A stretch of 64,000 nucleotides of DNA from Escherichia phage EC.P2. The translations under genes were made by a program, and so were the position numbers. Shown here one piece after another: positions 1 to 13,237 of this stretch. The number at the start of each line of letters is the position of its first letter. Within the stretch, counting starts at the first letter, position 1. The stretch lies in sequence record PQ631072.1; one strand, written 5' to 3'. The notes below the pieces were generated by a model. The model did no database searches. It was not told the origin of the DNA and saw only the letters and a program-made list of their open reading frames with translations.

Positions 1-302
1 AGCGACTAGGTAGATTAGTTAAAGATTACGATGAAGCTACTTGGACTTCTTTACGGGAGAAGATTGTCAAGCGTGGTTTGTATCTTAAATACACACAAAA
101 TGAAGATCTCAAAAATAAACTTATCGCTTACGCAGATAAGGAGTTCGTAGAGGCAAGCCCTTATGATTCTATTTATGGTATCAAAATGGGGATGTGGGAT
201 CGTGATGTGGAAAATAAGGACTGTTGGAAAGGACAAAATCTTTTAGGAAAATGGCATACAGACCTTGCTGTTTATCTAAAAGCACAATCTGATATTTCCT
301 GA
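1..302 (+). CDS. NADAR-domain (YbiA-like) protein, C-terminal fragment; 5' end outside window
   Basis: In-frame translation from base 3 ends ...KEFVEASPYDSIYGIKMGMWDRDVENKDCWKGQNLLGKWHTDLAVYLKA*, matching the conserved C-terminal block of the NADAR family as recalled. Confidence 0.55.
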   Translation, partial: RLGRLVKDYDEATWTSLREKIVKRGLYLKYTQNEDLKNKLIAYADKEFVEASPYDSIYGIKMGMWDRDVENKDCWKGQNLLGKWHTDLAVYLKAQSDIS

Positions 303-519
303 TATTTTGAAAATTTTTATTTTTATAAAAAGGGGTGTGGGTTTCATGTACAGAAATTCACCCTCTGCACAGTATATCCAGAGTAAATATTATTCTGTAC
401 TCTGTTAATAAAGTATTTAATTTGTTTGTTGGATTATGGTATCTGATCTTTAAAAGGCATACTATCTCTTAACTACTACTTATAACAGAACAGTAAAATC
501 ATTTTTATAAAAAGGACAA

Positions 520-727
520 AATTATTTAAAGTTTTTACAGATTTTTGGGTACAAATTTTGAAAATGAAAAGTTCAAGTTTGGTCAAAATTATTTAAAGTT
601 TTTGTACGTATTTCTATCCAGATTTTGAAAATGAAAACTTCAATTTTTTAAAAATTCCCCAGTTTATTTAAAGTTTTTTTGCCTTTTTCCGTAGAAAAAT
701 CAAAAATGAAAAGTTCAATTTCGTGTT
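520..727. repeat. Three tandem ~65-70 bp direct repeats (units start ~520, ~586, ~659)
   Basis: Each unit carries attatttaaagttttt and ttttgaaaatgaaaa(g/c)ttcaa; read directly. Confidence 0.8.
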
Positions 728-730
728 TTT

Positions 731-858
731 ATGGGTATGCGTATGATAATCATTCTCATTTGTAAATGAGAATCATTATCATTTAATTATGTAAATGATA
801 AGCATTCTCACTAAGAGAATGAGAATCATTAGCAAATGAGAATTTTTCTCATTTACAG
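731..858. promoter_or_regulatory. Array of Fur-box-like hexamer repeats (GATAAT/ATTATC units)
   Basis: tgataatcattctcatt, aatgagaatcattatcatt, aatgataagcattctcact, gaatgagaatcattagc; aatgagaatcattatc matches the E. coli Fur consensus core aatgataatcattatc at 15 of 16. Confidence 0.45.
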
Positions 859-1115
859 AATAACGCGCAGGGGCGGTGTTTGTCTCGCGCTCCCGTGTCC
901 CCTCGCCATACAATAAGAATAGCATAACCAACAACAAAAGCAAGCGATTATTTTTATCTTTACATTTCTTTACAAATTTATTTTGGACGAGCTACCGGCG
1001 ATCAACCTTCCAACCAGTGCCCCCTGGTATGTTAGCCCCGCCTTTACGCCGTGGGGGTGGCGTTTCCTCTTCTGTATGTAAAACAGTATAAGCCCGATCC
1101 CTGGGCTTGTCAAGA

Positions 1116-1382
1116 TTATTTTTTGTTTTCTTGCCAGGATAGGACACCTAACCAAAAATACATGTCGCCCCGCGCCCCTGGCGGGATCTTGCTTTCCCCG
1201 CCGCCACTGCAAGCCCATAGATAACCATCAGCGAACGGATCAAAGTTTTCTATTTCTTCCACCTTATGATCGCCCAGGTTGAGAACGGTTTCAACCTTTA
1301 AGCCCGTTGCGCTTGCTACCTGGTGCACCGTGCCGCCTTGCCAGCCCAATGAGTGCATGAGATGTAAAGGAGTATTTGTCAT
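1116..1382 (-). CDS. Hypothetical protein (88 aa) in a GC-rich islet
   Basis: ORF with AAGGG RBS; GC-rich codons atypical for the window; no recognisable motif. Confidence 0.3.
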   Translation of the reverse strand: MTNTPLHLMHSLGWQGGTVHQVASATGLKVETVLNLGDHKVEEIENFDPFADGYLWACSGGGESKIPPGARGDMYFWLGVLSWQENKK

Positions 1383-1493
1383 GGTATCGCCCTTTCTTTG
1401 ATGTGCGCCCTGGTTGGCGCGGTAGAAAGATAATAGCCGTTTCCTTTATAGATAGCAAGCAAAAAAGAAATGAAAAAAAGATTAAAAAAATGG

Positions 1494-1522
1494 TTGACGT
1501 TCCTCACCTGGTAGCGTAGTAT
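1494..1522 (+). promoter_or_regulatory. sigma70-like promoter (ttgacg-N17-tagtat)
   Basis: -35/-10 hexamers with 17-bp spacer, upstream of GC hairpin and RBS of gene 1578. Confidence 0.6.
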
Positions 1523-1577
1523 TCATCTTGTCGAGGGGCGGCAATAGTGCCGCTCATAACAGAAGAGAGAAATAATC

Positions 1578-1850
1578 ATGGCATCATATAGCGCATCAAT
1601 GATCGTAGCTGGCATCACTGGTAAACCTATGCGCGGTGGCGGATCTTTCGCTAACATCAATATTGATGGACGTTTATCCCTGGACGCAGCGATCACAGTG
1701 GCACGGGAAACGTTTAAAAAAGAATGTAATTTCAATAAACAAGATTATCTCGGTTTCGCTATTGAAAAAACCGCGCGCTTTGTGGATTATAAAAGCCCGA
1801 AAATGATCGACACTACACTAAAAGCGCAAGATGTAGCGTTTTTGCTTTAA
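1578..1850 (+). CDS. Hypothetical early protein (90 aa)
   Basis: ORF preceded by promoter, 5' hairpin and RBS. Confidence 0.55.
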   Translation: MASYSASMIVAGITGKPMRGGGSFANINIDGRLSLDAAITVARETFKKECNFNKQDYLGFAIEKTARFVDYKSPKMIDTTLKAQDVAFLL

Positions 1851-1853
1851 GGC

Positions 1854-1882
1854 TTGACACTGAAAAATAATTTGGTAATATA
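1854..1882 (+). promoter_or_regulatory. sigma70-like promoter (TTGACA-N17-aatata)
   Basis: Consensus -35, AT-rich -10; followed by hairpin 1893-1914. Confidence 0.6.
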
Positions 1883-1892
1883 TACCACGTAA

Positions 1893-1914
1893 GGCGGGGA
1901 AATGGTTTCCCGCC
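1893..1914 (+). other. Conserved 5'-UTR GC hairpin ggcgggGAAATGGTTTcccgcc (representative of about 16 copies)
   Basis: Inverted repeat between promoter -10 and RBS; no downstream T-tract. Confidence 0.7.
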
Positions 1915-1936
1915 AAATCAAAGAAAGGGTAATGCA

Positions 1937-2299
1937 ATGAGCAAGCAAATCAATACTATCATGTTTAATCTGGTATCTTTCCGCGATGACGTGAAAAATC
2001 TTTCGCGTGATGCAGTGGATGCACGGATCGAAAGCTATCGCACACAGATCGCAACATTACCGTTAAAACGTGATCAACATGCCGCTAATATGATGCTTGA
2101 TGCTATGATTAAAAAGATGATTCAATGTGATCTTACCCTGGCTTATGAATATGCTGGCGATCTCTTTGTAACATATAGCAAGCCCGTTCCAGGTATGAGC
2201 ACCACGGAAGAATTGCATGCCTTAAATCTGCGACAAGATGCATGGGATAACATGCGCCGTGTTATGGTATGGGTAGAAAGCGGTAAAATTTACGAATAA
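1937..2299 (+). CDS. Hypothetical early protein (120 aa)
   Basis: ORF; promoter, hairpin and RBS upstream. Confidence 0.6.
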   Translation: MSKQINTIMFNLVSFRDDVKNLSRDAVDARIESYRTQIATLPLKRDQHAANMMLDAMIKKMIQCDLTLAYEYAGDLFVTYSKPVPGMSTTEELHALNLRQDAWDNMRRVMVWVESGKIYE

Positions 2300-2377
2300 A
2301 AACGGTTGACATTGCACTAAAACCTGATAAGCTATCTTAAAGCGGGAACTATTCCCGCTTACATAGGATAAAACTTT

Positions 2378-2524
2378 ATGAAACAATATGTAATGAGTAT
2401 TCACACCAAAAACGGCGCTACTGTTACGACTCCGGCACGGTTTGCACTTGTAAACCGTTGCAAGAGACTAAAACGAGAGCTAAAAAATAACCGTGCAACG
2501 GGCTTTAAACGCTGGGGAGGATAA
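2378..2524 (+). CDS. Small basic hypothetical protein (48 aa)
   Basis: Short ORF after hairpin 2341-2358; below the ORF-track cutoff, found by reading. Confidence 0.35.
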   Translation: MKQYVMSIHTKNGATVTTPARFALVNRCKRLKRELKNNRATGFKRWGG

Positions 2525-2526
2525 TC

Positions 2527-2787
2527 TTGTTTTTTCTAAAAGTTTTTGATAATGTGATCGCTTTTGAACATGCTACAACGTTCGACCTGGCGAGATACGC
2601 TATCAGGTTTAAAGATAATGTTTATCCCCGTGCTGGCGGCGGTTACACTATTTTTAATCATCGCAACGCGCAACTGACTGATGTAACTAATCCAGATCCT
2701 GGAGTGTATCGGATAGGCTGGCTACCGTCAAAAGACGCTGCAAGCATGTTTAAGGTATGTAAACTACTAACAGAAGAGGCGAACTAA
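2527..2787 (+). CDS. Hypothetical protein (86 aa, probable TTG start)
   Basis: ORF with GGAGG 7 nt upstream of TTG; no ATG alternative. Confidence 0.35.
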   Translation: MFFLKVFDNVIAFEHATTFDLARYAIRFKDNVYPRAGGGYTIFNHRNAQLTDVTNPDPGVYRIGWLPSKDAASMFKVCKLLTEEAN

Positions 2788-2788
2788 C

Positions 2789-3343
2789 ATGGGGCGTGAA
2801 TATGTGATCCAGTCCTGGGTAAAGCATGACGCAAATGATCCGCGCATAATACCAGATGACATGATCGATCACATGGTAGGGTATAGCGGGGAGCAGATAG
2901 GAAATCGAGCGGCAAAGAGCAACGGCAACACCAGGACGCGATCCGTTCGTCCTGGATGGCTGGCGAATGGTAACGCTGACATTGCAAGCGCCGCAGATCC
3001 AAGCGATGACGCTAAAAATAATCCCTTGTACAGCATTGATCCGGCTTTTAAGGTGTTGGAAGAGTATCCCGCTAAATTAGCCGCACTAGATAAGGCATAC
3101 GAAGAAAAGCGCATGGCCTGGACTGTATACAACACCGCTAAAATGGTGCTAGATGCAAAATTGATTAAAGCCCAGGAGAAGATCAATAAACTTGTTACAG
3201 TAGCGCAAGAGGAAGACCAGGGCGACCAGGAGGAAGAGGAAGAAATCATGCCCACCCTGGAAGAGGAAGAGATCCAGCCATACATGCCGACGGAAGAGGA
3301 AAAAAGACAAGCCTTAAAAAATTATGAAAATTGCATTGTGTAA
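2789..3343 (+). CDS. Hypothetical protein with acidic E/D-rich C-terminus (184 aa)
   Basis: ORF with RBS; low-complexity EEEE tract. Confidence 0.55.
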   Translation: MGREYVIQSWVKHDANDPRIIPDDMIDHMVGYSGEQIGNRAAKSNGNTRTRSVRPGWLANGNADIASAADPSDDAKNNPLYSIDPAFKVLEEYPAKLAALDKAYEEKRMAWTVYNTAKMVLDAKLIKAQEKINKLVTVAQEEDQGDQEEEEEIMPTLEEEEIQPYMPTEEEKRQALKNYENCIV

Positions 3344-3424
3344 GGCTTGACATATGCAAACAAGCCCCGTAATATGTACCACATAAAGCGGGGCAACGCC
3401 CCATAAGGTGAAATAAAAAATCAC

Positions 3425-3452
3425 TTGACACCTGAAATCAGTAAGCTATAAT
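3425..3452 (+). promoter_or_regulatory. Consensus sigma70 promoter (TTGACA-N16-TATAAT)
   Basis: Perfect -35 and -10 hexamers. Confidence 0.7.
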
Positions 3453-3489
3453 GCTTATATAGATTGAAACATTACTAAGGAATAAAAGC

Positions 3490-3669
3490 ATGGCTATTAT
3501 TGCAAAGACTGAGATCGTAGGTTTAGATTCTATCATCCTGGCATATGAGGAAGCTATAGAAATGTATGTGGTTTCCTATGGTGAATATATTCGTGAATAT
3601 AAATCTATTGATCTAGCTTTTGAATGCTATATTCGCCAGGTCAATAAAGCATATGATGATTATCGTTAA
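3490..3669 (+). CDS. Small hypothetical protein (59 aa)
   Basis: ORF downstream of consensus promoter and RBS aagga. Confidence 0.4.
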   Translation: MAIIAKTEIVGLDSIILAYEEAIEMYVVSYGEYIREYKSIDLAFECYIRQVNKAYDDYR

Positions 3670-3688
3670 AAGTTTTAGTCTTGTGCTA

Positions 3689-3717
3689 TTGACAACGAAC
3701 GATAGTACAAGCATAAT
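3689..3717 (+). promoter_or_regulatory. sigma70-like promoter (TTGACA-N17-cataat)
   Basis: Hexamers read directly. Confidence 0.6.
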
Positions 3718-3764
3718 AACTTTTATCGGGAATACTCCTAACTAATCAAAAGAGATTAAAGACT

Positions 3765-4130
3765 ATGGCTAAAAATATCAATGTTTCTGCTTATGCTACC
3801 CTGGCTAACACTGCTAAAATTGAACTATCCAGCATTGAAGCGGTACATATTAGCGCCCGTCGCTGGTTTCAAAAGTCTTATGGCAATACTTATTTCTCTT
3901 TGATGGTTGACGTTGAGATCGGCGGTAAACTGATTGAAGTCGTTAACGTTCCGTTTCAATATGGCTATGGGGATCATTTTGATACCGTTGCCCTAGAAGA
4001 GTTTAGCAAGGTTATCAACCTGGAAGGTAAAGACTTTTCAAATTATGCTTACCTTTCCCGTTTTTGCCGTGACAATGGGATCGCTGTATACAGTCATGCA
4101 AGCGATGTAAAACGTAAAAAAGATTTATAA
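3765..4130 (+). CDS. Hypothetical early protein (121 aa)
   Basis: ORF with RBS and promoter. Confidence 0.6.
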   Translation: MAKNINVSAYATLANTAKIELSSIEAVHISARRWFQKSYGNTYFSLMVDVEIGGKLIEVVNVPFQYGYGDHFDTVALEEFSKVINLEGKDFSNYAYLSRFCRDNGIAVYSHASDVKRKKDL

Positions 4131-4136
4131 AAAGCA

Positions 4137-4164
4137 TTGACAGCACGAATAAAAAGCATATAAT
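4137..4164 (+). promoter_or_regulatory. Consensus sigma70 promoter (TTGACA-N16-TATAAT) followed by hairpin 4178-4194
   Basis: Hexamers read directly. Confidence 0.7.
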
Positions 4165-4218
4165 ACTTATATCGAGAGCGGGAATAGTTCCCGCCTCACT
4201 GAAAAAGAGATTAACATC

Positions 4219-4458
4219 ATGGCTAAATCTAAAATGTACAACGGTCACAAAAATAAAACTCATTGGAATGTAAGCCTTTGGATTAATAACGATCCAGGTT
4301 TTTATAATATGGCAAAAGAATTTATAGCCGTGAACAACAATAAAGATAACGCCGCGCGTGAAATGATGGCACTACTTAACGAAATGGGCCAAAATACTAC
4401 GCCAGATGGCTATAAATTCAGTAAAACCAGTATCCGCGCCGCTATGGTAGGAATGTAA
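4219..4458 (+). CDS. Hypothetical early protein (79 aa)
   Basis: ORF; promoter, hairpin, RBS. Confidence 0.55.
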   Translation: MAKSKMYNGHKNKTHWNVSLWINNDPGFYNMAKEFIAVNNNKDNAAREMMALLNEMGQNTTPDGYKFSKTSIRAAMVGM

Positions 4459-4467
4459 TAAAAGCAG

Positions 4468-4495
4468 TTGACAACGTTTTTTAATCTGGTAAAGT
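4468..4495 (+). promoter_or_regulatory. sigma70-like promoter (TTGACA-N16-TAAAGT, TG-extended) followed by hairpin 4506-4527
   Basis: Same module recurs at about 5348, 8005, 8869, 9851. Confidence 0.6.
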
Positions 4496-4549
4496 TTATC
4501 ACATAGGGCGGGAAATGGTTTCCCGCCAAATGAAAGAAAGGTTATCATT

Positions 4550-4777
4550 ATGGCTATCGTTATTGTTCGCGTATCCGGTACGGTTGGAATCTCTCAGGTA
4601 GTAGCAGTTATCACAGAGAAGAAAGGGGATGATCTTCACTCCTCCTTGAATAGCTGGGCGGTCGCTAACTTTGGGCAATGGTCGAGCGTTGAGTACATCG
4701 AATCCTACCAGGTGCCAACGATTAGCCTAACTGATCTCAACGTTGATCGCTTGTTGTGCCTGGATCAATTAAACTAA
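4550..4777 (+). CDS. Hypothetical early protein (75 aa)
   Basis: ORF; promoter, hairpin, RBS. Confidence 0.55.
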   Translation: MAIVIVRVSGTVGISQVVAVITEKKGDDLHSSLNSWAVANFGQWSSVEYIESYQVPTISLTDLNVDRLLCLDQLN

Positions 4778-4864
4778 AAATAATATTGACAAGATAACTA
4801 AAATCAGTAAAATGTAATGCATAGGGCGGCAATAGTGCCGCTCCTAGTGAGAGAGATTATCAAA

Positions 4865-5080
4865 ATGGCTAATATCCGCACCTTGTTAAAAAATGCAAAG
4901 CAAGTTTTATTTTCAGATGACGAATATTTTAATAAAGATATTACAGGCGTGAAAAATCTTAAAGATGTGAAAGATGTTATCGGTATCCGTGGATCTTTAC
5001 GTAAAGGTGACATATACGGTAACAAGGTGCAATATAAATTGTCAAAAGATTATGATTTTACTTTGACAATTATTTCATAA
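4865..5080 (+). CDS. Hypothetical early protein (71 aa; start moved to internal ATG after hairpin)
   Basis: Track ORF 4817 starts inside hairpin 4824-4843; ATG 4865 has an RBS. Confidence 0.5.
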   Translation: MANIRTLLKNAKQVLFSDDEYFNKDITGVKNLKDVKDVIGIRGSLRKGDIYGNKVQYKLSKDYDFTLTIIS

Positions 5081-5170
5081 AACTACTTGCAAACCTGGTA
5101 AAATAAAGTAAACTATATTCATTAAGGCGGTGGAATAGCCCACCGCCTAACAAAGAGAAGAGGAAACATC

Positions 5171-5341
5171 ATGATCACTTTCGCCACCCGTGAAGCCGCT
5201 CGCAACGTTGCACGTAAAGTTAACGCCGCCAACCTGGGCGCTACGCTTAAAGCCCCGGTGAAAGATGAATCAGGAAAATGGATCTTTCCTGGTCTGCGTC
5301 ACGCTGATAAGCTGGGAACATTAACGTTAAAAAATAAATAA
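5171..5341 (+). CDS. Small hypothetical protein (56 aa)
   Basis: ORF after hairpin 5127-5147 and RBS aggaaac. Confidence 0.4.
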   Translation: MITFATREAARNVARKVNAANLGATLKAPVKDESGKWIFPGLRHADKLGTLTLKNK

Positions 5342-5427
5342 TATTCGCTTGACAGTAGCATCATTTATAAGTAAAGTAACAACAACGGCGGGAAATGGTT
5401 TCCCGCCATCAATAAAGAGATAAGATT

Positions 5428-5787
5428 ATGAAATCAGCAAAAGCAATTAAAACTTACATTTTATCGGCTATTTCTTTTGATGGTACTACAACCGAAAAAG
5501 AAAAAATCACCGAACTGATGCGCCGTTTTAATTCTGAATACTGGTATCCCGATAATCAAAAACGTTACAATTATAACGTGATCAAGGCAATAGCCTCATG
5601 GTTACAAGGTTTACCGTCAGAAATCAATATTGCTTTTGATTATAACGAGATCGATCACTTGTTAATTGAATGGAAGTACATAAAAGAAACAAGCAAAGAA
5701 ACAACCGTTACCCGTGAGCGGGAAAATTATTGGTTATATATTGCAAGCATGATCGTAACTTTGGCAAAATATCATAACGTAGCGTAA
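5428..5787 (+). CDS. Hypothetical early protein (119 aa)
   Basis: ORF; promoter 5348-5376, hairpin 5388-5407, RBS. Confidence 0.6.
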   Translation: MKSAKAIKTYILSAISFDGTTTEKEKITELMRRFNSEYWYPDNQKRYNYNVIKAIASWLQGLPSEINIAFDYNEIDHLLIEWKYIKETSKETTVTRERENYWLYIASMIVTLAKYHNVA

Positions 5788-5801
5788 TCGAGAGGAAAAA
5801 C

Positions 5802-5939
5802 ATGAACGCATCACAGCAGATCGAAAAATTCAACCGCAACAAAGCGCGTAAAGATTGGAACGAAGAGATCACCAAGAAAGGCGACAAGCGGAACAAAACA
5901 AAAAGAGATCGCAGCACTAAAAGACACTGGAACGGATAA
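5802..5939 (+). CDS. Small Lys/Arg-rich hypothetical protein (45 aa)
   Basis: Short ORF with RBS gagagg, followed by terminator. Confidence 0.35.
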   Translation: MNASQQIEKFNRNKARKDWNEEITKKGDKRNKTKRDRSTKRHWNG

Positions 5940-5945
5940 CAAAAA

Positions 5946-5966
5946 GGGCGCAATAAGCGCCCTTTT
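5946..5966 (+). terminator. Rho-independent terminator (gggcgc-aataa-gcgccc + TTTT)
   Basis: GC stem-loop followed by T-run. Confidence 0.6.
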
Positions 5967-6057
5967 AGCTTATATAGAGGCTTGTTACCCATAGGCAATG
6001 GTAACGCCAGGGCAAGCCTATAAATCAACGTTAGACAGCTTTACAGGAGCTTTAAAA

Positions 6058-6240
6058 ATGAAATTAGACGAAATAAGCAAGGCACTAGCCCAGGGGCAAA
6101 GGTTATGCGCCCGATATCGTGATCAATATGGTTTCATAACTAGCGGCGTGATCCTGGGGATTGAAGGAAATAAAATTTTTATTGACACGTTGAAAAACGT
6201 TGTATATAGTGACAATATAATCTCAATAAAACATATATGA
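6058..6240 (+). CDS. Small hypothetical protein (60 aa; start at ATG with AGGAG RBS)
   Basis: Track ORF 5998 trimmed to RBS-supported ATG. Confidence 0.4.
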   Translation: MKLDEISKALAQGQRLCARYRDQYGFITSGVILGIEGNKIFIDTLKNVVYSDNIISIKHI

Positions 6241-6248
6241 GGCAAGAA

Positions 6249-6650
6249 ATGAAAAAATTATTGATCGCTGGTTTAATCTATTTTGGCATGGTTGGAACAT
6301 CTAGCGCGGCGATATCCTCCACAGTAGCAGAATTAAGCGCCGTTGATGCAATGGAAAACGTCATGATCATTAATAACGCGATCCCCGATGAAATCATGGA
6401 GGATTCACACATGATCGCTTATGGTGCTGTTACACAATTAACGGCAAAAATAGATAAATCTATTGTTAATGGCTTAAATGAAGATGTGCCATGTGAAATT
6501 ATTACCAGTGTGCTCACTACTCAAAATTTTACGCCGTGGTTAAAAAGTATTCAAAAAGTACACAGTACAGCCGCAGATCGTAGCAATGAAAAACTAGTGT
6601 CAGCACTTGCAACGTATACCCTAGCAAAATGTACCGAGATAAAAGATTGA
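6249..6650 (+). CDS. Putative secreted protein with N-terminal signal peptide (133 aa)
   Basis: MKKLLIAGLIYFGMVGTSSAA hydrophobic leader. Confidence 0.5.
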   Translation: MKKLLIAGLIYFGMVGTSSAAISSTVAELSAVDAMENVMIINNAIPDEIMEDSHMIAYGAVTQLTAKIDKSIVNGLNEDVPCEIITSVLTTQNFTPWLKSIQKVHSTAADRSNEKLVSALATYTLAKCTEIKD

Positions 6651-6697
6651 CAATATAGAAAGCACGTTATAAGATACACACAACAAAGGAGAACTAC

Positions 6698-7000
6698 ATG
6701 AACGGCATAGCTAAAACGTTTTTTCTTTTTTCTGGTGTAAATGATCCATCAATAAAAGTCGATAGTGTAAAAGAAAACAATACTATCACAGCTAAATTGT
6801 CTCAAGATGAAACAAATAACGTGCTAATCATTAATCTTAAAGAAATAACAAAAGGTTATTATACTATTGCTTACCATGCGATTTATCATGCTGGTACTAA
6901 TGAGGAAGTGCAAACAAGCAACAACGAAAGCGCGGCGCTACCTGGTAATCTGGTGCTGGGCGTTATCAGTTTAATTGTCAATGATTTTTTTAAGGAGTAA
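6698..7000 (+). CDS. Hypothetical protein (100 aa)
   Basis: ORF with RBS aaggag. Confidence 0.5.
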   Translation: MNGIAKTFFLFSGVNDPSIKVDSVKENNTITAKLSQDETNNVLIINLKEITKGYYTIAYHAIYHAGTNEEVQTSNNESAALPGNLVLGVISLIVNDFFKE

Positions 7001-7329
7001 AACCATGCCCTATTTACATTTATTTTTCGGGATCTTATTGACAGGATCTTTTTTCTTCTGTATGCTTGTTTCTATTGTAAACCACGTTTTAAGACATTAA
7101 GGAAACAGCATGAAAATTATTCCCGTACAGTATAGCGTAATAAATCCAGCATATGAGGAAGGAAGGAAAACAAGCATGGCTTTATGTTGTATTGCTACTA
7201 TAGCCATGTTATTATATATTGTGTTTTAATAGGTTTTATAGTTGTACGCTTTAAAGGCTTGACAATTTTTTGTTATGCTTTAAACTATATCTTGAAAACG
7301 GCAAAGGCCGCAAACAAAAGGGTAAAATT

Positions 7330-7653
7330 ATGAAATCTGTGATCGGTGTTTATTTGGATAACTCTGATTTTTTCTATCATCGTGCGCGTTTACTTGATGC
7401 GATTGAAATGATAGAATCAGGCTTTAAAGAGTATCGCCTTGCACATGATGACCTGGAAGCATTACAGGGCGATAGTGTTTTTACATTGCAAGCTAAAGCA
7501 CTATGCAAAAGCCGGATCGACATTGCGAGCAAAAAGATAGAACGCGGCATGTCCTGGTTGCGCACCGCAGAAATCAACATGGGGCAATGGTACGGCGAAA
7601 ACTTAGAAAATAAACGCCCTTTTGTAAATGTAGAAAATATTAAAGATTATTGA
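7330..7653 (+). CDS. Hypothetical protein (107 aa)
   Basis: ORF; promoter ttgaca at 7263-7268; start trimmed to ATG 7330. Confidence 0.5.
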   Translation: MKSVIGVYLDNSDFFYHRARLLDAIEMIESGFKEYRLAHDDLEALQGDSVFTLQAKALCKSRIDIASKKIERGMSWLRTAEINMGQWYGENLENKRPFVNVENIKDY

Positions 7654-7735
7654 TTGACAGCACACCTGATAAGTAATATATTGTATCTCATAGAGCGGGG
7701 AAATGGTTTCCCCGCCTTAACAGAAGAGATAAGAT

Positions 7736-8020
7736 ATGAAGATCACAAAAGCACTTTCCAACTATGCAGCACGTCGCGGCTTATGCTTAACCGTTGAAAA
7801 CTTAGGGAAAGAAGATTTTTTGTGCTTTTGGGAGCTTGAGAATGATAATGAGTGGATCTTCTCTTATTCTATCTGCAAAGATCAAAATGGTTGCTTGTTA
7901 ACCTGGCGCGGTAATATCTATTTACCGGAAGAAATAAAACAAGAATTACCAGGCACGATCATGACTGAGAAACAGCTTAAGGAAGTGATCAATTTTGTAG
8001 GGCAAAACATTAAAAAATAA
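7736..8020 (+). CDS. Hypothetical early protein (94 aa)
   Basis: ORF; promoter 7654, hairpin 7695-7716, RBS. Confidence 0.55.
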   Translation: MKITKALSNYAARRGLCLTVENLGKEDFLCFWELENDNEWIFSYSICKDQNGCLLTWRGNIYLPEEIKQELPGTIMTEKQLKEVINFVGQNIKK

Positions 8021-8104
8021 TTTGACAGTAGGCAAACAACGTAGTAAAGTTTACCACATAGGGCGGGAAATGGTTTCCCGCTCACAACAAAAGAGAAACA
8101 AATC

Positions 8105-8275
8105 ATGATCCCGACTATGTTTTACGTATCGCGCAAAGGTCACAATATTTTTTGGTCTGAAGATTTAAATGAAGCCATGACGTTTGCCCGTGATCGTGTT
8201 GCTATCGGTGGCGTTAATATTACCGTAACCGATGAAAACGGCATTGAATACTACAACGGCGACGATGAAGAGTAA
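8105..8275 (+). CDS. Small hypothetical protein (56 aa)
   Basis: ORF after promoter 8005 and hairpin 8061-8081. Confidence 0.4.
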   Translation: MIPTMFYVSRKGHNIFWSEDLNEAMTFARDRVAIGGVNITVTDENGIEYYNGDDEE

Positions 8276-8322
8276 TTAATAAGGCGGGGGAGTATTCCCC
8301 GCCGTCAATAAAGAGATAAATC

Positions 8323-8592
8323 ATGAAAATAACATTAGATGACGCAATCAAGGCTATCGAATCCGGTTACACCCTGGTAAAAGATGATAAGGCTAAAATA
8401 GTGCATCATGTTAACAAGGAAACAGGCGAAAGCATGATCACGTATAAAACTGCTTACTTTCTCCAATGGGTAGTAAACCCGCGCATTCAAATAAAAATTA
8501 CTGTGGCTATTGCTAAAAAATTATGTGCTTTACAGGGCACAAGTTTTAACGAGATCCCGCCGTGTTTTGACTGGTCGAGCTTGAAAAAATAG
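8323..8592 (+). CDS. Hypothetical early protein (89 aa)
   Basis: ORF after hairpin 8283-8303 (no separate promoter seen). Confidence 0.55.
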   Translation: MKITLDDAIKAIESGYTLVKDDKAKIVHHVNKETGESMITYKTAYFLQWVVNPRIQIKITVAIAKKLCALQGTSFNEIPPCFDWSSLKK

Positions 8593-8672
8593 TTTGACAA
8601 TAATTATAAATAGGGTAGAATGTATTGCGTAGGGCGGCAATAGTGCCGCTCACAACTAAAAGAGAAATCATC

Positions 8673-8867
8673 ATGGCGCTTAAAAAACTAACAAGCAATA
8701 CTCGTTGGGATGAAATTGACGGGGAAGTATACATTTTCGCCCGTAAACCAGGTGATCAAAAATGGTCAAAGGCTTTTACTTGTCACCCTGCAACAATAGA
8801 TCTAATAAAAAGTAAAGGTTTTCGTGAAGCAGTAGCGAGAAGTTTACTGATCCCTTGTAAAAAATAG
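8673..8867 (+). CDS. Hypothetical early protein (64 aa)
   Basis: ORF; promoter 8594-8621, hairpin 8632-8651; start trimmed. Confidence 0.5.
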   Translation: MALKKLTSNTRWDEIDGEVYIFARKPGDQKWSKAFTCHPATIDLIKSKGFREAVARSLLIPCKK

Positions 8868-9246
8868 TTTGACAATATGCGGTTATCTGGTAAAGTGTAC
8901 CACGTAGGGCGGGAAATGGTTTCCCGCCAGAATAGAGAGAACTAAAATGATTATTCTTACCATGATGTGCGCGGCGGTTATTATTCCTTTGATAACGCTT
9001 ATTGTTTCTGAGATCGATGATCTTCTCTTTGAAAGAAGTTTAAAAAAGTAATTGACAACGGCTAATAAGCTGATAATATGTATCACATAGGGCGGGGCAA
9101 TAAGGCAACGCCCACTAATGAGGGTAGCATCATGTTAGAGAAAATTTTCACGGTTGTAATAGTGGGCCTGGCGTTATCGGTTGGAGTGATTGCAACTATG
9201 GCTAACATGATTCTATCTTCCCACGGTATTGGATAAGGTGAAACAA

Positions 9247-9462
9247 ATGATCACGAACAAAACAGGTAAAACGGAATTTTTACGTAACTTGCAGATCGGC
9301 AAGCCTGAGATCTGGTATTGCACTAAAACACCACGTGACGAAATGAAAGATTTCACCGCTACTTTACAACGTGTTAAAATATCTATCACACAGAAAAAAG
9401 CCTTGATAGTTGCAGAAAACGAGATCCCGCAAACCATTATCATTGTTGAGCGTACAGCATGA
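9247..9462 (+). CDS. Hypothetical protein (71 aa)
   Basis: ORF with RBS aaggtga. Confidence 0.45.
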   Translation: MITNKTGKTEFLRNLQIGKPEIWYCTKTPRDEMKDFTATLQRVKISITQKKALIVAENEIPQTIIIVERTA

Positions 9463-9845
9463 AAACAGAAATCATTATTGAAATCATCAACGGCTATAAA
9501 GAAGCCTTTATTTTTGCCGAACCAGCGACGGATCACAATGGGGAATATATTGAGAATCTAGGCGATTATGATTTTTCAGATCAAGCCCATCAGCGGATCA
9601 TTCATGACGTAGCGGCTTATTGTGATGCCAATGATGCGGCTATCTCTGAGGCAATGAGCGACGGCGCAACAGCAAACCAGATCGGGAATGATTTACATTT
9701 TACCCGTAACGGTCACGGCGTTGGTTTTTGGGATCGCCCTGAAATATACACTACTAACACAGCAAACCGTTTAACTAATGCAGCTAAATTAATGCCATCG
9801 GTGCATGCTTACATTGGTGAAGATAATTTGATTTATATTGAATAA
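9459..9845 (+). CDS. Hypothetical protein (128 aa)
   Basis: ORF overlapping upstream stop (ATGA). Confidence 0.55.
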   Translation: MKTEIIIEIINGYKEAFIFAEPATDHNGEYIENLGDYDFSDQAHQRIIHDVAAYCDANDAAISEAMSDGATANQIGNDLHFTRNGHGVGFWDRPEIYTTNTANRLTNAAKLMPSVHAYIGEDNLIYIE

Positions 9846-9932
9846 AAGTATTGACACCGATCCCCAATATGGTATTATTTACCACGTAGGCGGGAAATGG
9901 TTTCCCGCCAGGTAATCAAAAAGGTAAATACT

Positions 9933-10322
9933 ATGCGCAACCTGGTTTCTGTTTCTAACGTTGAAAAATTCCAATCCTTGCAGGGTATCGTTAACAACGT
10001 AGCGCCTTTTTTAGTCAATGGCTTGATTGCAAAGATGAAAAATAAACATCATGCGGCATGGTCTGCTTACTGCTTTGACAATGATGAAAAAGCGGCTGAA
10101 ATGATGTTAAATATGCTGTTAGACAGTGTAGAATCATCTTTACCGGAAAACATCGCAGAAGAGATCACCTATCGTTATAATATGGCGATCACTTACCAGG
10201 AGGTTGCGCAATTTAATATGATGGACGATGACGAACAACAGGATCAGGAAATTTTCTGGGAGTATGCTGATCGTCAATCGGCTTTTGATGAAAAGTTAGC
10301 GATGTATTATAATGAATATTAA
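9933..10322 (+). CDS. Hypothetical early protein (129 aa)
   Basis: ORF; promoter 9851, hairpin 9889-9908; start trimmed. Confidence 0.55.
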   Translation: MRNLVSVSNVEKFQSLQGIVNNVAPFLVNGLIAKMKNKHHAAWSAYCFDNDEKAAEMMLNMLLDSVESSLPENIAEEITYRYNMAITYQEVAQFNMMDDDEQQDQEIFWEYADRQSAFDEKLAMYYNEY

Positions 10323-10337
10323 TACACGGTAAAAGAA

Positions 10338-10363
10338 AGGGGCGCACTAAGCGCCCTTTTTTG
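10338..10363 (+). terminator. Rho-independent terminator (aggggcgc-actaa-gcgccct + TTTTTT)
   Basis: GC stem-loop followed by T-run. Confidence 0.7.
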
Positions 10364-10784
10364 TATTCTTTTTTCACGATGGAAACAACACGTAAAGAAT
10401 AGGCGTAAAGGTGGCGTAAAACCATCTAAAACCGATTGTAACCGTTTAAACAAGGTAGGAATGATTAATCACCTTGCCAGGATGAAAAAGCTGTTATAAA
10501 GCTATATAGGGCGTTTAAAGCACATAGGAAATAATTTGCTTTTTATCTTGCCTTTTATTCTGCTTTTGATTATTATTATGGAACGGGCGGCACCTGGGAA
10601 CAGGGGAAGATAATCACCGGACGACCCCGCTATATATTGATAGCTAACATCTATCAAACAACAAAACATCAAAGGAATAAACTATCAAATCTTTACAATC
10701 TCATCTATTGACCGGTAAATCATAGCAGTTTAATATTGTTTTTAGAGGGTAGAACATACCCAAAACGAAAACAGGAAAAAGAAA

Positions 10785-11021
10785 ATGAAAGAAGTCATGA
10801 TCCTCAAAAAATCACCTATTTTACGTGGTGGCTTTATCGCTTACTCTGATGATCTGTTAATTGCAACGGTTGCAAAAATACTAAAATCAGAAGAGGATAG
10901 TAAAAACGGCGTTTATCGTATCTGTTTCACCCGTGGGAAATTGCAAGGCAAGATCGCCTATGCTTTTGATTTACAAGATGTAAATGATAAAATCTGCGCT
11001 GTTATTGATTATGCAAAATAA
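10785..11021 (+). CDS. Hypothetical protein (78 aa)
   Basis: ORF; promoter ttgacc at 10708. Confidence 0.5.
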   Translation: MKEVMILKKSPILRGGFIAYSDDLLIATVAKILKSEEDSKNGVYRICFTRGKLQGKIAYAFDLQDVNDKICAVIDYAK

Positions 11022-11108
11022 TTAACTTTCTTATTGACACCGGATCACGCTTACATTATTATTTATCACGTAGGGCAAATCATTTTAAACGGTAAACGAG
11101 GAATCACC

Positions 11109-11492
11109 ATGAGCAATATCATCAACCTGGCGGCTACTGTAAACGGTAAAGACTTTAACGGCGCTGTAGATCGTGATCCTATGTGGTGCTTATCAGTGTT
11201 TAAAGGCGATCTGGTTGAAGTTAGAACAACCGAAGGTTATAGCGACGATTATAAATGCGAGATCCATTTACATAACTGGTACACGGGTAAAACTTATGCG
11301 CTGAATCACGCGTTTATCGGGAAAATTGAATATCGCGAAATGATCGACGAAGAAACGGGGCAAGATTTTAGCGATTATGTTTATATTCGTTCCGAAACAT
11401 TAGCCGAACGGTTGATCGAGAAAATGAAAGCAAAAAATAAAATTAATTTAACTCATTGGATTGATATAACAAACGATCCAGCTTATCAGTAA
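11109..11492 (+). CDS. Hypothetical protein (127 aa)
   Basis: ORF; promoter ttgaca at 11043; start trimmed to RBS-supported ATG. Confidence 0.5.
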   Translation: MSNIINLAATVNGKDFNGAVDRDPMWCLSVFKGDLVEVRTTEGYSDDYKCEIHLHNWYTGKTYALNHAFIGKIEYREMIDEETGQDFSDYVYIRSETLAERLIEKMKAKNKINLTHWIDITNDPAYQ

Positions 11493-11508
11493 ATAACATT
11501 CCATACAA

Positions 11509-11534
11509 GGGCGCAATAAGCGCCCTTTCTTTTT
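11509..11534 (+). terminator. Rho-independent terminator (gggcgc-aataa-gcgccc + T-run)
   Basis: Same stem sequence as terminator 5946. Confidence 0.65.
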
Positions 11535-11739
11535 ACCTCAATAAAGATGATAGCTTTTACCTATCAAAAACGTTCACCGAAAAAAGTGAATAGATCGCGG
11601 TATCGAGCTAATCAAGGAGCAGATGAATAACCATACCATGAAGATCATAAGGCGCTTACAACGTGTTTTAGACCGCTTATTTTTAATTTCTCCATGTAAC
11701 TATCTGGCAAAAACAGCCTTTTTCTTATCTTTCCTCTTA

Positions 11740-11820
11740 AATAATAATCATTCTCATTTATAGCTGATTATTTATGCAATAAACTGAATAATGCAATAAT
11801 GATAATCATTCTTAACTTAA
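11740..11820. promoter_or_regulatory. Fur-box-like repeat cluster (second region)
   Basis: aatgataatcattctcatt and aatgataatcattctt. Confidence 0.4.
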
Positions 11821-11829
11821 GACCATCTA

Positions 11830-12130
11830 ACCTATAAAATAATAAGTTATCTAACTAAATTAAAACTAATTATCTTACTTTTATTTATAACTTACTGTTA
11901 CTACCTCATTGATAACCTTATATTAAACAACAATAACTAATATAAATCATTACTAAGCTAAATATAATCTATCTAACCTTTAAAACTATAACTATAATCT
12001 ATTTAATTATTGCACAAAGTAACTATTAAATCGTTAGTAACATTACTAAATAATTAATATCCTATCTATTTATGATCTAATCTTTACCTTACTATCTATT
12101 ACCTAAATAATCATTTCGTACCGTAATCAT
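11830..12130. repeat. About 300-bp tract almost devoid of G on the + strand, with degenerate short repeats
   Basis: Only about a dozen G in about 300 nt by eye; strong strand compositional skew. Confidence 0.6.
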
Positions 12131-12654
12131 TTCATACAATAATTATAACAAGAAATATAATTCGCAAGCGTATCATTAGCAGCCTATGCCGGACACATAG
12201 GCGGCTAATAATAACGCAACTACACATCCCACATAATAACCATCACCGATAGTTATTATTTGTGCTTATGTAGCTTGCAACAACTGCAAGCGCAACAATA
12301 TACATGGTATATTGTATTCCCTTACATTGTTGCGGTGCGTTATTATTAGCTAATGTTTGGAACATTGGCTATAATATAAGCTATCCAATAATAAACATAG
12401 TGAATAATAACCCTGATGATCATAATGCGCCACCTTCCAGGGGGCGCTATGTGAACACAAAGAAATCTTTCTTGTCAAGAAAAATATTACCATTATTGCG
12501 CAAAATTATTTACATCTGAATAGATGGTTTTTCATACTATTGCCCCCAAATTATGCCCCTTTTGTTGCAATATAAACTACTATTTGTTGAGCCTACTTTC
12601 TTAAAAGCGCAATAAATTAGAATTATCTTGATTTTTAGGACGTTTTATAGTATA

Positions 12655-12885
12655 GAAAGTATGCAAATGATAATCATTATCAGCTATCTTCCACGGGTGG
12701 CACTATTTCACGCAGGATCATTTCATTTGGCAAGGTGTATATAGATGTTTAGACTTGCCAAGTCATTGATTTACTTAGAATTTATCTGTTTTGTTGGGAA
12801 TAGTGCCTTTATTGTTCAGAAAATAATCAAAAGTCTTATAAGTCATTGAATGATAATGCAAATGATAATAATTCTCATTGATATT
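12655..12885. promoter_or_regulatory. Fur-box-like repeats incl. perfect core aatgataatcattatc (12664-12679)
   Basis: Also gaatgataatgcaaatgataataattctcatt near 12845. Confidence 0.45.
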
Positions 12886-13237
12886 TGAGGGGGACGGTCG
12901 GCAGAAATCGGGGGCGCTGAAAATCGCGTTAAGCACCTCTCGCAAGCGAGCAGTATTTTGCGGCAAGTTATTGATATTATTGACTTTACGCTTATGAAAA
13001 GGGGGTGTGTCGAAATAAATCGGGTATACCGGAAAATTTTTGTGGCATAGATATTTATTTGTCTATATTATGTACTAAGGGGTGTGTTAAAAATAATAGG
13101 TATATATAGAATAATTGATAGGGAAATCCTATACTAAATCCTTCATTAATGATGTTCCTATGTTGCTGTCCTTGTAACAGATGAAAAGACGCTGTATGAT
13201 GTGTGGCATGAAACGTAAATTTATAAAGGAGTCTGAT

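Follow-up and report, generated by a model that had tools for sequence, protein, structure and literature searches.

Promoter and stem-loop cassettes in the right-end early gene block of the phi92-like Escherichia phage EC.P2

The array and its cassettes

The window analysed here comprises 64,000 nucleotides (nt) of Escherichia phage EC.P2 (sequence record PQ631072.1), and the array under study, positions 1494-11492, is a succession of small open reading frames (ORFs), many of which are preceded by a repeated cassette in which a strong promoter is followed by a GC-rich hairpin. This cassette array is real, non-random and limited to the block. Judging from their sequence, the cassettes appear to be units of the promoter-early stem-loop (PeSL) type lying outside the T4-like phages and equipped with a transcribed hairpin.

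In a megablast comparison with isolated phages, the array is 95-97% identical over 92-98% of the query to W22, KKE7M, ESCO8, BME3, Nernie and VivaForever, 95-96% identical over 81-83% of the query to muut and PHB05, and 96% identical over 74% of the query to alia. The matched phages whose records were fetched belong to the genus Justusliebigvirus (phi92-like), subfamily Stephanstirmvirinae, and the same is true of the window phage. The phi92 counterpart of the array is gp225-gp248, located on the + strand and stopping about 1.1 kb short of the right direct terminal repeat: the array is the right-end block of small early genes, whose function is not known. The ten largest ORFs of the block all match PHROGs of unknown function (10/10), and the single Pfam match among the block proteins tested is a T4 gp30.8-like protein (11109-11492). 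The GenBank record of phi92 carries, for the homologous block, annotations of coding sequences and of weak ribosome-binding site (RBS) motifs; promoters and stem-loops are not annotated.

A promoter-plus-hairpin scan of the entire 64 kb, run on either strand and complemented by a separate hairpin scan and by reading of the sequence, located 15 cassettes that associate a promoter with a hairpin (-35 elements starting at 1494, 1854, 2306, 3347, 4137, 4468, 4786, 5087, 5349, 7654, 8022, 8594, 8869, 9052 and 9851), one hairpin devoid of a promoter (8283-8303) and about seven strong promoters without the cassette hairpin (3425, 3689, 6182, 6647, 7259, 10708 and 11034). Altogether, the block holds 15 + 1 hairpin units, about 22-23 promoters and about 30 ORFs, which falls short of the 30 or so single-gene hairpin cassettes announced by the first-pass annotation of this DNA. 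That annotation also credited nearly every ORF with a promoter of its own; promoters are indeed numerous, but they are fewer than the ORFs, and only about ten of the 15 cassettes are followed by a single ORF, the others by none (3347), two (5349) or three (2306 and 9052). The 15 hairpin positions that it listed all correspond to a GC hairpin, as confirmed by the reading and by both scans, and a small 16th hairpin absent from the list is present at 3390-3402. A promoter had been claimed in front of each listed hairpin: 14 of them do follow a promoter of the TTGACA type, the exception being the hairpin at 8283, which has none.

The -35 and -10 elements conform to TTGACA, 16-17 nt, TAnnnT in 14 of the 15 cassettes, five of which display a TG-extended -10 element. 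The stem starts 6-14 nt past the -10 element, mostly 10-11 nt, instead of within about 8 nt as previously stated, and the folding energy of the hairpin is about -15 kcal/mol. The absence of a downstream T-run, by contrast, was correctly reported: the 8 nt that follow each of the 16 stems are A-rich and contain zero to two T, whereas the three canonical terminators of the block (5942-5966, 10334-10362 and 11507-11527) have T-runs and are built on another stem family, GGGCGC/GCGCCC. The 21-mer GGCGGGAAATGGTTTCCCGCC is present in four exact copies and in two more copies on the + strand with one or two mismatches, compared with 0.00 copies expected from 100 shuffles. Outside positions 1494-9933, none of about 100 promoter-like sites on both strands of the 64 kb is accompanied by a hairpin of the cassette family. 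The elements of the block, all on the + strand, are the following.

1494-1577 (+), cassette 1: -35 TTGACG at 1494, -10 TAGTAT ending at 1522; hairpin 1536-1555, GGGCGGCA-ATAG-TGCCGCTC; A-rich leader; gene 1578-1850
1854-1936 (+), cassette 2: TTGACA/TG-TAATAT; hairpin 1893-1914, GGCGGGGAA-ATGG-TTTCCCGCC; gene 1937-2299
2306-2377 (+), cassette 3: TTGACA/TAAGCT; hairpin 2340-2360, AAGCGGGAA-CTA-TTCCCGCTT, just 6 nt past the -10 element; drives ORFs 2378-2524, 2527-2787 and 2789-3343
3347-3402 (+), gene-less cassette: TTGACA/TAATAT; small hairpin 3390-3402, GGGGC-AAC-GCCCC; promoter 3425 directly after
3425-3489 (+), promoter without hairpin: consensus TTGACA-16-TATAAT; gene 3490-3669
3689-3764 (+), promoter without GC hairpin: TTGACA/CATAAT; gene 3765-4130
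4137-4218 (+), cassette 5: consensus TTGACA-16-TATAAT; hairpin 4178-4194, GCGGGAA-TAG-TTCCCGC; gene 4219-4458
4468-4549 (+), cassette 6: TTGACA/TG-TAAAGT; hairpin 4507-4527, GGCGGGAAA-TGG-TTTCCCGCC; gene 4550-4777
4786-4864 (+), cassette 7: TTGACA/TAAAAT; hairpin 4824-4843, GGGCGGCA-ATAG-TGCCGCTC; gene 4865-5080
5087-5170 (+), cassette 8: -35 TTGCAA at 5087-5092 (TTGACA in muut), -10 TAAACT at 5109-5114; hairpin 5125-5148, AGGCGGTGG-AATAGC-CCACCGCCT; gene 5171-5341
5349-5427 (+), cassette 9: TTGACA/TAAAGT; hairpin 5387-5407; genes 5428-5787 and 5802-5939, then the terminator 5942-5966
5942-5966 (+), canonical intrinsic terminator: AAAAGGGCGC-AATAA-GCGCCCTTTT
6647-6697 (+), promoter without hairpin: TTGACA/TAAGAT, short leader, strong Shine-Dalgarno (SD) sequence AAGGAG; gene 6698-7000
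7259-7329 (+), promoter with a weak hairpin: TTGACA/TAAACT; 4-bp CGGC-AAAG-GCCG at the equivalent position; gene 7330-7653
7654-7735 (+), cassette 10: TTGACA/TATATT; hairpin 7695-7715, GCGGGGAAA-TGG-TTTCCCCGC; gene 7736-8020
8022-8104 (+), cassette 11: TTGACA/TAAAGT; hairpin 8061-8083, GGGCGGGAAA-TGG-TTTCCCGCTC; gene 8105-8275
8283-8303 (+), promoter-less hairpin: GGCGGGGGA-GTA-TTCCCCGCC, between the stop codon of 8105-8275 (8 nt upstream) and the ATG at 8323 (19 nt downstream)
8594-8672 (+), cassette 13: TTGACA/TAGAAT; hairpin 8632-8651, GGGCGGCA-ATAG-TGCCGCTC; gene 8673-8867
8869-8946 (+), cassette 14: TTGACA/TG-TAAAGT; hairpin 8908-8928; gene 8947-9051
9052-9131 (+), cassette 15: TTGACA/TG-TAATAT; degenerate hairpin 9090-9113 with a 5-bp stem GGGCG...CGCCC and a long loop; genes 9132-9236, 9247-9462 and 9459-9845
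9851-9932 (+), cassette 16: TTGACA/TG-TATTAT; hairpin 9889-9909; gene 9933-10322, then the terminator 10334-10362
10334-10362 (+), canonical intrinsic terminator with a T-run
10708-10784 (+), promoter with a weak hairpin: TTGACC/TAATAT; GGGTA-GAACA-TACCC at the equivalent position; gene 10785-11021
11034-11108 (+), promoter whose hairpin was lost: TTGACA/TATTAT; start-site motif TTATCACGTAGGG kept; gp30.8-like gene 11109-11492
11507-11527 (+), canonical intrinsic terminator with a T-run; closes the array

Note that the two strong promoters at 3347 and 3425, the second of which matches the consensus perfectly, form a tandem with a spacing of 78 bp and without an intervening ORF; this arrangement (3347-3452) is probably the recombination scar of a cassette whose gene was lost.

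Structure of the hairpin and exchange of cassettes among relatives

We compared the block with its homologues in ten relatives, namely Justusliebigvirus phages muut, alia, ESCO8, BME3, Nernie, PD06 and PHB05, Phapecoctavirus phages ESCO13 and ZCKP1, and Citrobacter phage Tr1. Applied to the 11 phage sequences, the same scan yielded 115 promoter-plus-hairpin cassettes containing 31 distinct hairpins. The cassette unit is about 85 bp long and comprises an A-rich tract (visible as an A-rich profile upstream of the -35 element in the 101 unique cassettes), a near-consensus sigma70 promoter, a start-site context TAyCACrTAG, the GC hairpin and a leader of about 20 nt that is rich in A and has a weak SD sequence, followed by the ATG of a small gene. 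In the 115 cassettes, the stem starts 8-15 nt past the -10 element (most commonly 10-11 nt) and its end is separated from the ATG by 17-27 nt (most commonly 21 nt), a geometry that fits the first-pass proposal of a stem-loop at or near the predicted 5' end of the transcript. The 31 hairpins have an overall length of 13-24 nt, with arms of 5-10 bp and loops of 3-6 nt; 12 loops are found (TGG, ATGG, TAG, ATAG, CAC, AAC, CGGT, ACGG, AATAGC, AATCCC, ATAA and ATGA), and the G-rich arm is the 5' arm in 31 hairpins out of 31.

An alignment of the in-window hairpins made with MAFFT was discarded, the 3' arms being out of register. A covariance model built from the 9-bp hairpin type recovers copies in all loci. 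On the corresponding alignment, 99.1% of the cells are paired and six of the nine pairs have changed on both sides (57 cells), values that are to be read with the fact that the alignment is fitted to the model, that reverse-strand palindrome hits are included, so that the counts are not clean, and that the copies are related by descent. None of 500 shuffles reaches the observed pairing score, and sliding the partner registers collapses the pairing. Furthermore, stems are extended by G-T pairs 18 times, with many of these cases sharing ancestry, versus once by an A-C or C-A pair; this excess favours a structure formed by the + strand RNA (or by a single strand) over a palindrome in duplex DNA.

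The hairpins of orthologous genes are not always of the same type. The MIPT... gene is preceded by a GGGCGGGAAA-TGG hairpin in the window (8061) versus a GGGCGGCA-ATAG hairpin in muut, and the muut cassette placed before the gene equivalent to 4550 combines the hairpin of window cassette 1854 with the leader of cassette 4468. Since loops and hairpin types vary among relatives, the loop identity seen within the window is not a conserved recognition feature, contrary to the first-pass annotation, which regarded the conservation of an AAATGG loop as the mark of a recognition site. From these comparisons, the identity of the hairpins within the window seems better explained by copying or recombination among cassettes than by a recognition site, and the hairpin itself is kept as a structure by compensatory changes, with the loop and the exact stem free to vary. 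The promoter-less hairpin at 8283 is likewise conserved with a varied stem and loop, behind the same upstream '...NGDDEE' gene, in nine relatives belonging to Justusliebigvirus and Phapecoctavirus (counterparts at L003:14352-14388 and L004:13473-13511); in ZCKP1, it is kept after the upstream gene though the downstream sequence is unrelated.

Breakpoints between relatives were taken from a megablast comparison of positions 1-12500 of the window with seven Justusliebigvirus loci, the ends of the collinear blocks being clustered. Twenty-six of the 30 breakpoint clusters lie inside a promoter cassette or at most 15 bp from one, versus 24% expected from the share of the region that cassettes represent (binomial P ~5e-13), with the caveat that whole-gene insertions and deletions must end in intergenic DNA, which is here essentially all cassette. 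Overlapping junctions and chimeric cassettes are stronger evidence of recombination than this enrichment. More specifically, the junctions typically overlap by 7-27 bp on one side, which points to recombination between two homologous cassettes leading to deletion, insertion or replacement. Their positions are scattered over the -35 element, the spacer, the -10 element and the hairpin, some of them (5395, 8913 and 9901) lying inside the hairpin, which suggests that the substrate is the whole cassette unit and not the hairpin alone. In one of the four exceptions, a PHB05 junction joining 5395 to 5718, a deletion has occurred between the hairpin arm GCGGGAAA and a chance GCGGGAAA in ORF 5428-5787, the hairpin arm providing the microhomology. 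These sequence comparisons indicate that the cassette repeats double as recombination sites, at which the gene insertions, deletions and replacements that separate relatives start and end. Neither this role as boundaries of insertions and deletions nor the resemblance of the cassettes to PeSLs had been recognised in the first-pass annotation.

Distribution and relation to known elements

Cassette units are shared across the Stephanstirmvirinae, with a few copies in rV5. The right-end block of phi92 contains 11 cassettes of the array type, while rV5 (Vequintavirinae) displays two clear copies, GGCGGGAA-TGT-TTCCCGCC and GGCGGGAA-AAC-TTCCCGCC, each 10 nt past the -10 element, and two further weak ones. 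The hits of a degenerate scan of IMG/VR (TTGACA..TAnnnT..GGCGG) were for the most part isolated and attributable to chance; the loci returned were re-scanned for arrays, and uncultivated contigs L111, L020/L034 and L032, which have no match among isolated phages, were found to contain the order consensus promoter, hairpin, SD, ATG repeated three to seven times, with hairpin sequences unrelated to those of the window. The 21-mer gave seven isolated hits in bacterial genomes, all in high-GC metagenome-assembled genomes and none in Enterobacteria; a host origin of the hairpins from elements similar to the repetitive extragenic palindromic (REP) sequences was rejected on the grounds that the 21-mer is not in enterobacterial genomes. 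An Rfam scan of the 64 kb gave one tRNA hit only, and no family at gathering score for the hairpins. Our literature search found no description of the hairpins for phi92, phAPEC8 or rV5-like phages, a mention in the phi92 genome paper being not excluded, and no transcriptome of the phi92-like phage group; the rV5 paper lists sigma70 promoters and terminators only.

PeSLs have been described in the T4-like phages RB49/phi1, PST/T4 and nt-1/KVP40 as units of about 100 bp made up of an AT-rich tract, a near-consensus sigma70 early promoter, a Gn-loop-Cn stem-loop and an SD/start codon; they populate hyperplastic regions of genes without known relatives, are involved in modular shuffling and mini-circle formation, and terminator/attenuator activity was reported for their stem-loop (Arbiol et al. 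2010, PMC2839356; Comeau et al. 2014, PMC4122927). The window cassettes share with them the near-consensus sigma70 promoter with its AT-rich upstream tract, an adjacent stable GC stem-loop of the Gn-loop-Cn form (5-10 bp, about -15 kcal/mol), an SD and a start codon at the 3' end of the unit (ATG 17-27 nt after the stem), a concentration in a hyperplastic block of genes of unknown function (1494-9933 only, out of 64 kb), the coincidence of insertion/deletion and replacement boundaries with the units (26/30 clusters), and degraded or solo copies that mark old events.

The position of the stem-loop is different. In RB49, whose sequence was checked here, it fills the spacer between the -35 and -10 elements (TTGACA-GGGGATC...GATCCCC-TATAAT) or overlaps the -10 element, and in PST and nt-1, it precedes the promoter (PMC4122927). 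In the window cassettes, by contrast, it is always 6-15 nt downstream of the -10 element, within the transcript of the cassette itself and some 20 nt ahead of the ATG. The lineage is different as well, namely Stephanstirmvirinae (with a few Vequintavirinae copies) instead of the T4-like Straboviridae. Moreover, terminator activity and mini-circles were shown for RB49, whereas the window cassettes, known from their sequence, have no U-tract; the absence of a T-run, together with the transcribed position of the hairpin, argues for a main role other than that of the PeSL terminator.

The cassettes have a stable hairpin within a few nt of where the 5' end is predicted, and a single-stranded leader and an RBS come after it; in this they are also reminiscent of 5'-terminal stabilising stem-loops, and the leader hairpin of T7 gene 10 is a 5' stem-loop of a similar kind. 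The same arrangement characterises ompA and papA (Emory, Bouvet and Belasco 1992, cited in review PMC3997798). Unlike the ompA and papA elements, the hairpin described here comes in a module that is repeated, recombines and serves about 15 genes of one block, and the predicted tails, some 3-6 nt long, are about as long as protection would allow. REP hairpins and the early RNase III sites of T7 are intercistronic stabilisers or punctuation elements. Like them, the cassette hairpins are GC hairpins placed between the genes of an early region with many promoters, where they could shield upstream 3' ends, a likeness into which the promoter-less 8283 copy fits; they differ from REP in the absence of the 21-mer from enterobacterial genomes, from the T7 sites in that their stems are too short for RNase III, and from both in the fixed distance of most copies from a promoter. 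Finally, the GC-rich stem of 6-10 bp and the short loop recall Rho-independent terminators, but an A-rich tract replaces the U-tract and the hairpins are distinct from the true terminators of the block.

Two anomalies were encountered among the database records. Nineteen megablast hits are records called 'Campylobacter phage' that match the coliphage block; MG065639, MG065656, MG065645 and MG065689, which bear this name, are about 146 kb long and about 96% identical to the block, and the host label or sample purity of these records looks doubtful. The other is MT119359.1 (L141, Enterococcus phage heks), which carries a cassette and two genes within its first ~900 bp (177-899 of the record); these genes belong to VOG6062 and VOG5518, the groups annotated on the alia homologues of 1578-1850 and 1937-2299 of the window. 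The start of the heks record, with genes typical of Justusliebigvirus coliphages, looks like an assembly chimera.

The surroundings of the array have features of their own. Clusters of Fur-box-like palindromes are present in the AT-rich non-coding zones on both sides (742-860 and 11740-12890; e.g. ATGATAATCATTCTCATT and GCAAATGATAATCATTATC): with the E. coli Fur consensus, GATAATGATAATCATTATC, five sites are found at three mismatches or fewer versus 0.05 expected, and a local palindrome consensus gives 11 sites versus 0.12 expected. The non-coding region 501-721, upstream of the array, contains three tandem-like direct repeats of about 70-79 nt, 72% identical, which include …TTATTTAAAGTTTTT…GAAAATGAAAAGTTCAA and possibly constitute an origin or a packaging-related site. 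Directly upstream of the array, a conserved ORF of 88 amino acids (1116-1382, - strand) lies in a GC-richer island with several hairpins; it is a homologue of phi92 gp224 and has no Pfam match.

Possible roles of the transcribed hairpin

We favour, with a probability of roughly 55%, a composite function for the unit, which would be at once an early-expression cassette, the carrier of a transcribed 5' clamp with stabilising and insulating properties, and a recombination module. The hairpin is always downstream of the -10 element and hence transcribed. Host RNA polymerase would start about 7 nt past the -10 element, at the CA/CR steps of TAyCACrTAG, and every early mRNA would begin with a tail of some 3-6 nt, immediately followed by the hairpin; a start 7 nt past the -10 element predicts roughly 0-8 unpaired nt, with a median of about 4. 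In E. coli, 5' secondary structure stabilises mRNAs because RppH and the 5' sensor of RNase E need a single-stranded 5' end (review PMC3997798). The hairpin would thereby act as a 5' clamp slowing the 5'-end-dependent decay (RppH/RNase E) of poorly translated early messages with a weak SD. In read-through transcripts, it would punctuate the message and provide a 3' barrier for the upstream gene. The identity of hairpins within a genome would arise from copying and gene conversion among cassettes, and not from a sequence-specific reader.

The translation signals are consistent with messages of this kind. The SD of cassette genes is weaker than that of the other genes of the block (median -3.6 versus -5.9 kcal/mol, p=0.0045), and the leaders of the cassette genes (1578-9933) are 45-65% A, with an SD of the AAAGAGA type, which suggests an SD-poor mode of translation initiation dependent on the A-rich leader. 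A weak SD combined with an A-rich leader would result in poor shielding by ribosomes, so that such messages would profit from a 5' clamp. We also considered that the hairpin could insulate the RBS; this idea was dropped, the probability of the RBS being unpaired not being consistently altered by destruction of the hairpin or by a read-through of 150 nt from upstream.

Several observations weigh against the composite function. The folding predictions just mentioned reveal no consistent effect of the hairpin on RBS accessibility, and the start site is placed by promoter geometry alone. The pyrophosphohydrolase needs just 2-3 unpaired nt (PMC3997798), and the predicted tails, which measure about 3-6 nt and may reach 8, are at the limit of what would keep RppH or RNase E out. 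The 8283 hairpin has no promoter and has remained at the 3' end of its upstream gene, in ZCKP1 included: at least that copy cannot be a 5'-terminal element, and, given its existence, hairpins could well serve as 3' barriers in read-through RNA. The spacing, the covariation, the excess of G-T pairs and the statistic on weak SDs do not count as separate lines of evidence, and they partly stem from the common descent of recombining paralogues. In addition, a palindrome also 'covaries' under a DNA-level model, and the fixed polarity of the hairpin (G-rich arm 5', 31/31) is not predicted by a pure structure model, although it may reflect just common descent.

The 3' barrier might even be the main role, the hairpin acting as a terminator or attenuator on transcripts that arrive from upstream: it would stop or trim them, leave them with a protective 3' hairpin and prevent cumulative over-expression along the array. 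Insulation would be useful in a region with a strong promoter every ~350-450 bp, the 8283 hairpin sits 8 nt past a stop codon and has been kept with its upstream gene in nine relatives, and an RB49 PeSL stem-loop inserted between a promoter and lacZ cut expression as strongly as rrnB T1 (PMC2839356). We nevertheless hold this to be rather unlikely, as none of the 16 hairpins has the T-run displayed by the three canonical terminators of the block, whose stems belong to another family, and as the hairpin lies downstream of its own promoter, at a nearly constant distance, where an efficient terminator would also abort the transcripts of the cassette; the T4-like PeSL stem-loop, upstream of or inside the promoter, occupies the logical place for a terminator, and the window hairpins do not. 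The location of the hairpins between genes is also compatible with RNase III sites that would cut a polycistronic early RNA into monocistronic messages, an option put forward in the first-pass annotation and for which the processing of T7 early RNA is a precedent. RNase III substrates need a duplex of about 20 bp, that is, about two helical turns; with stems of just 5-10 bp and loops of 3-6 nt, we consider such processing extremely improbable.

A different line of explanation views the inverted repeat as a recognition site, either a DNA operator through which a regulator of phage or host origin would jointly switch off the early promoters or an RNA tag for an RNA-binding protein or nuclease, again of the phage or the host. 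The outer GCGG/CCGC core and the G-rich 5' arm common to all 31 variants, the (A)TGG or (A)TAG found in many loops, the position at about +3 to +25, which is the classic one for an operator, and the conservation of the start-site context TAyCACrTAG would all be accounted for. However, a dimeric operator with a fixed half-site spacing would not tolerate palindromes of 13-24 nt with arms of 5-10 bp and 12 loops, and the operator of a dimeric regulator was accordingly set aside given these variable arms and 12 different centres; whole hairpin types are swapped between orthologous genes, G-T pairs occur on the + strand only, which points to RNA and not to duplex DNA, and no candidate regulator was found, all the block genes tested lacking a known function. 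We therefore judge a recognition site to be improbable. The same low weight goes to a variant in which the hairpin would mark early phage mRNAs as 'self' for a factor encoded by the phage or the host; the mark might exempt these messages from the phage-induced, RNase E-driven destruction of host mRNA or coordinate an early-to-middle shut-off, and the features recognised would be the invariant polarity of the arms, the GCGG core and the (A)TGG or (A)TAG present in many loops. Lastly, the hairpin might have no RNA or regulatory role at all and, as a block of homology or a hotspot of replication slippage, promote shuffling while hitch-hiking with the promoter. Breakpoints are concentrated in cassettes, junctions fall within the hairpin at 5395, 8913 and 9901, a hairpin arm has provided the microhomology for a deletion, and several promoters work, by their sequence, without a hairpin. 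But compensatory substitutions have preserved the pairing, and few copies have decayed, which argues for selection on the structure; the junctions extend over the -35 element, the spacer and the -10 element as well, so that the hairpin is not a special crossover point; and unrelated viral contigs display the same promoter-hairpin-SD order with different sequences. A hairpin without any such role thus seems to us a poor candidate.

The cassettes are of use for annotation: about 30 tiny genes are annotated inconsistently in the GenBank records of the phage group, and the cassettes allow their start codons and operon boundaries to be placed reliably. With its transcribed hairpin, the cassette offers a compact, standardised natural part, made of a strong promoter, a putative 5' RNA clamp and a leader, which allows a direct look at the relationship between 5'-terminal structure and the stability of early phage mRNAs. 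If the composite function is correct, the shuffling of promoter and stem-loop cassettes, described only in T4-like phages, would extend to unrelated large coliphages, namely the Stephanstirmvirinae, and in traces to rV5-like phages and uncultivated viral contigs; it would then be a general route by which phages plug new early genes, often anti-defence candidates, into a ready expression slot.

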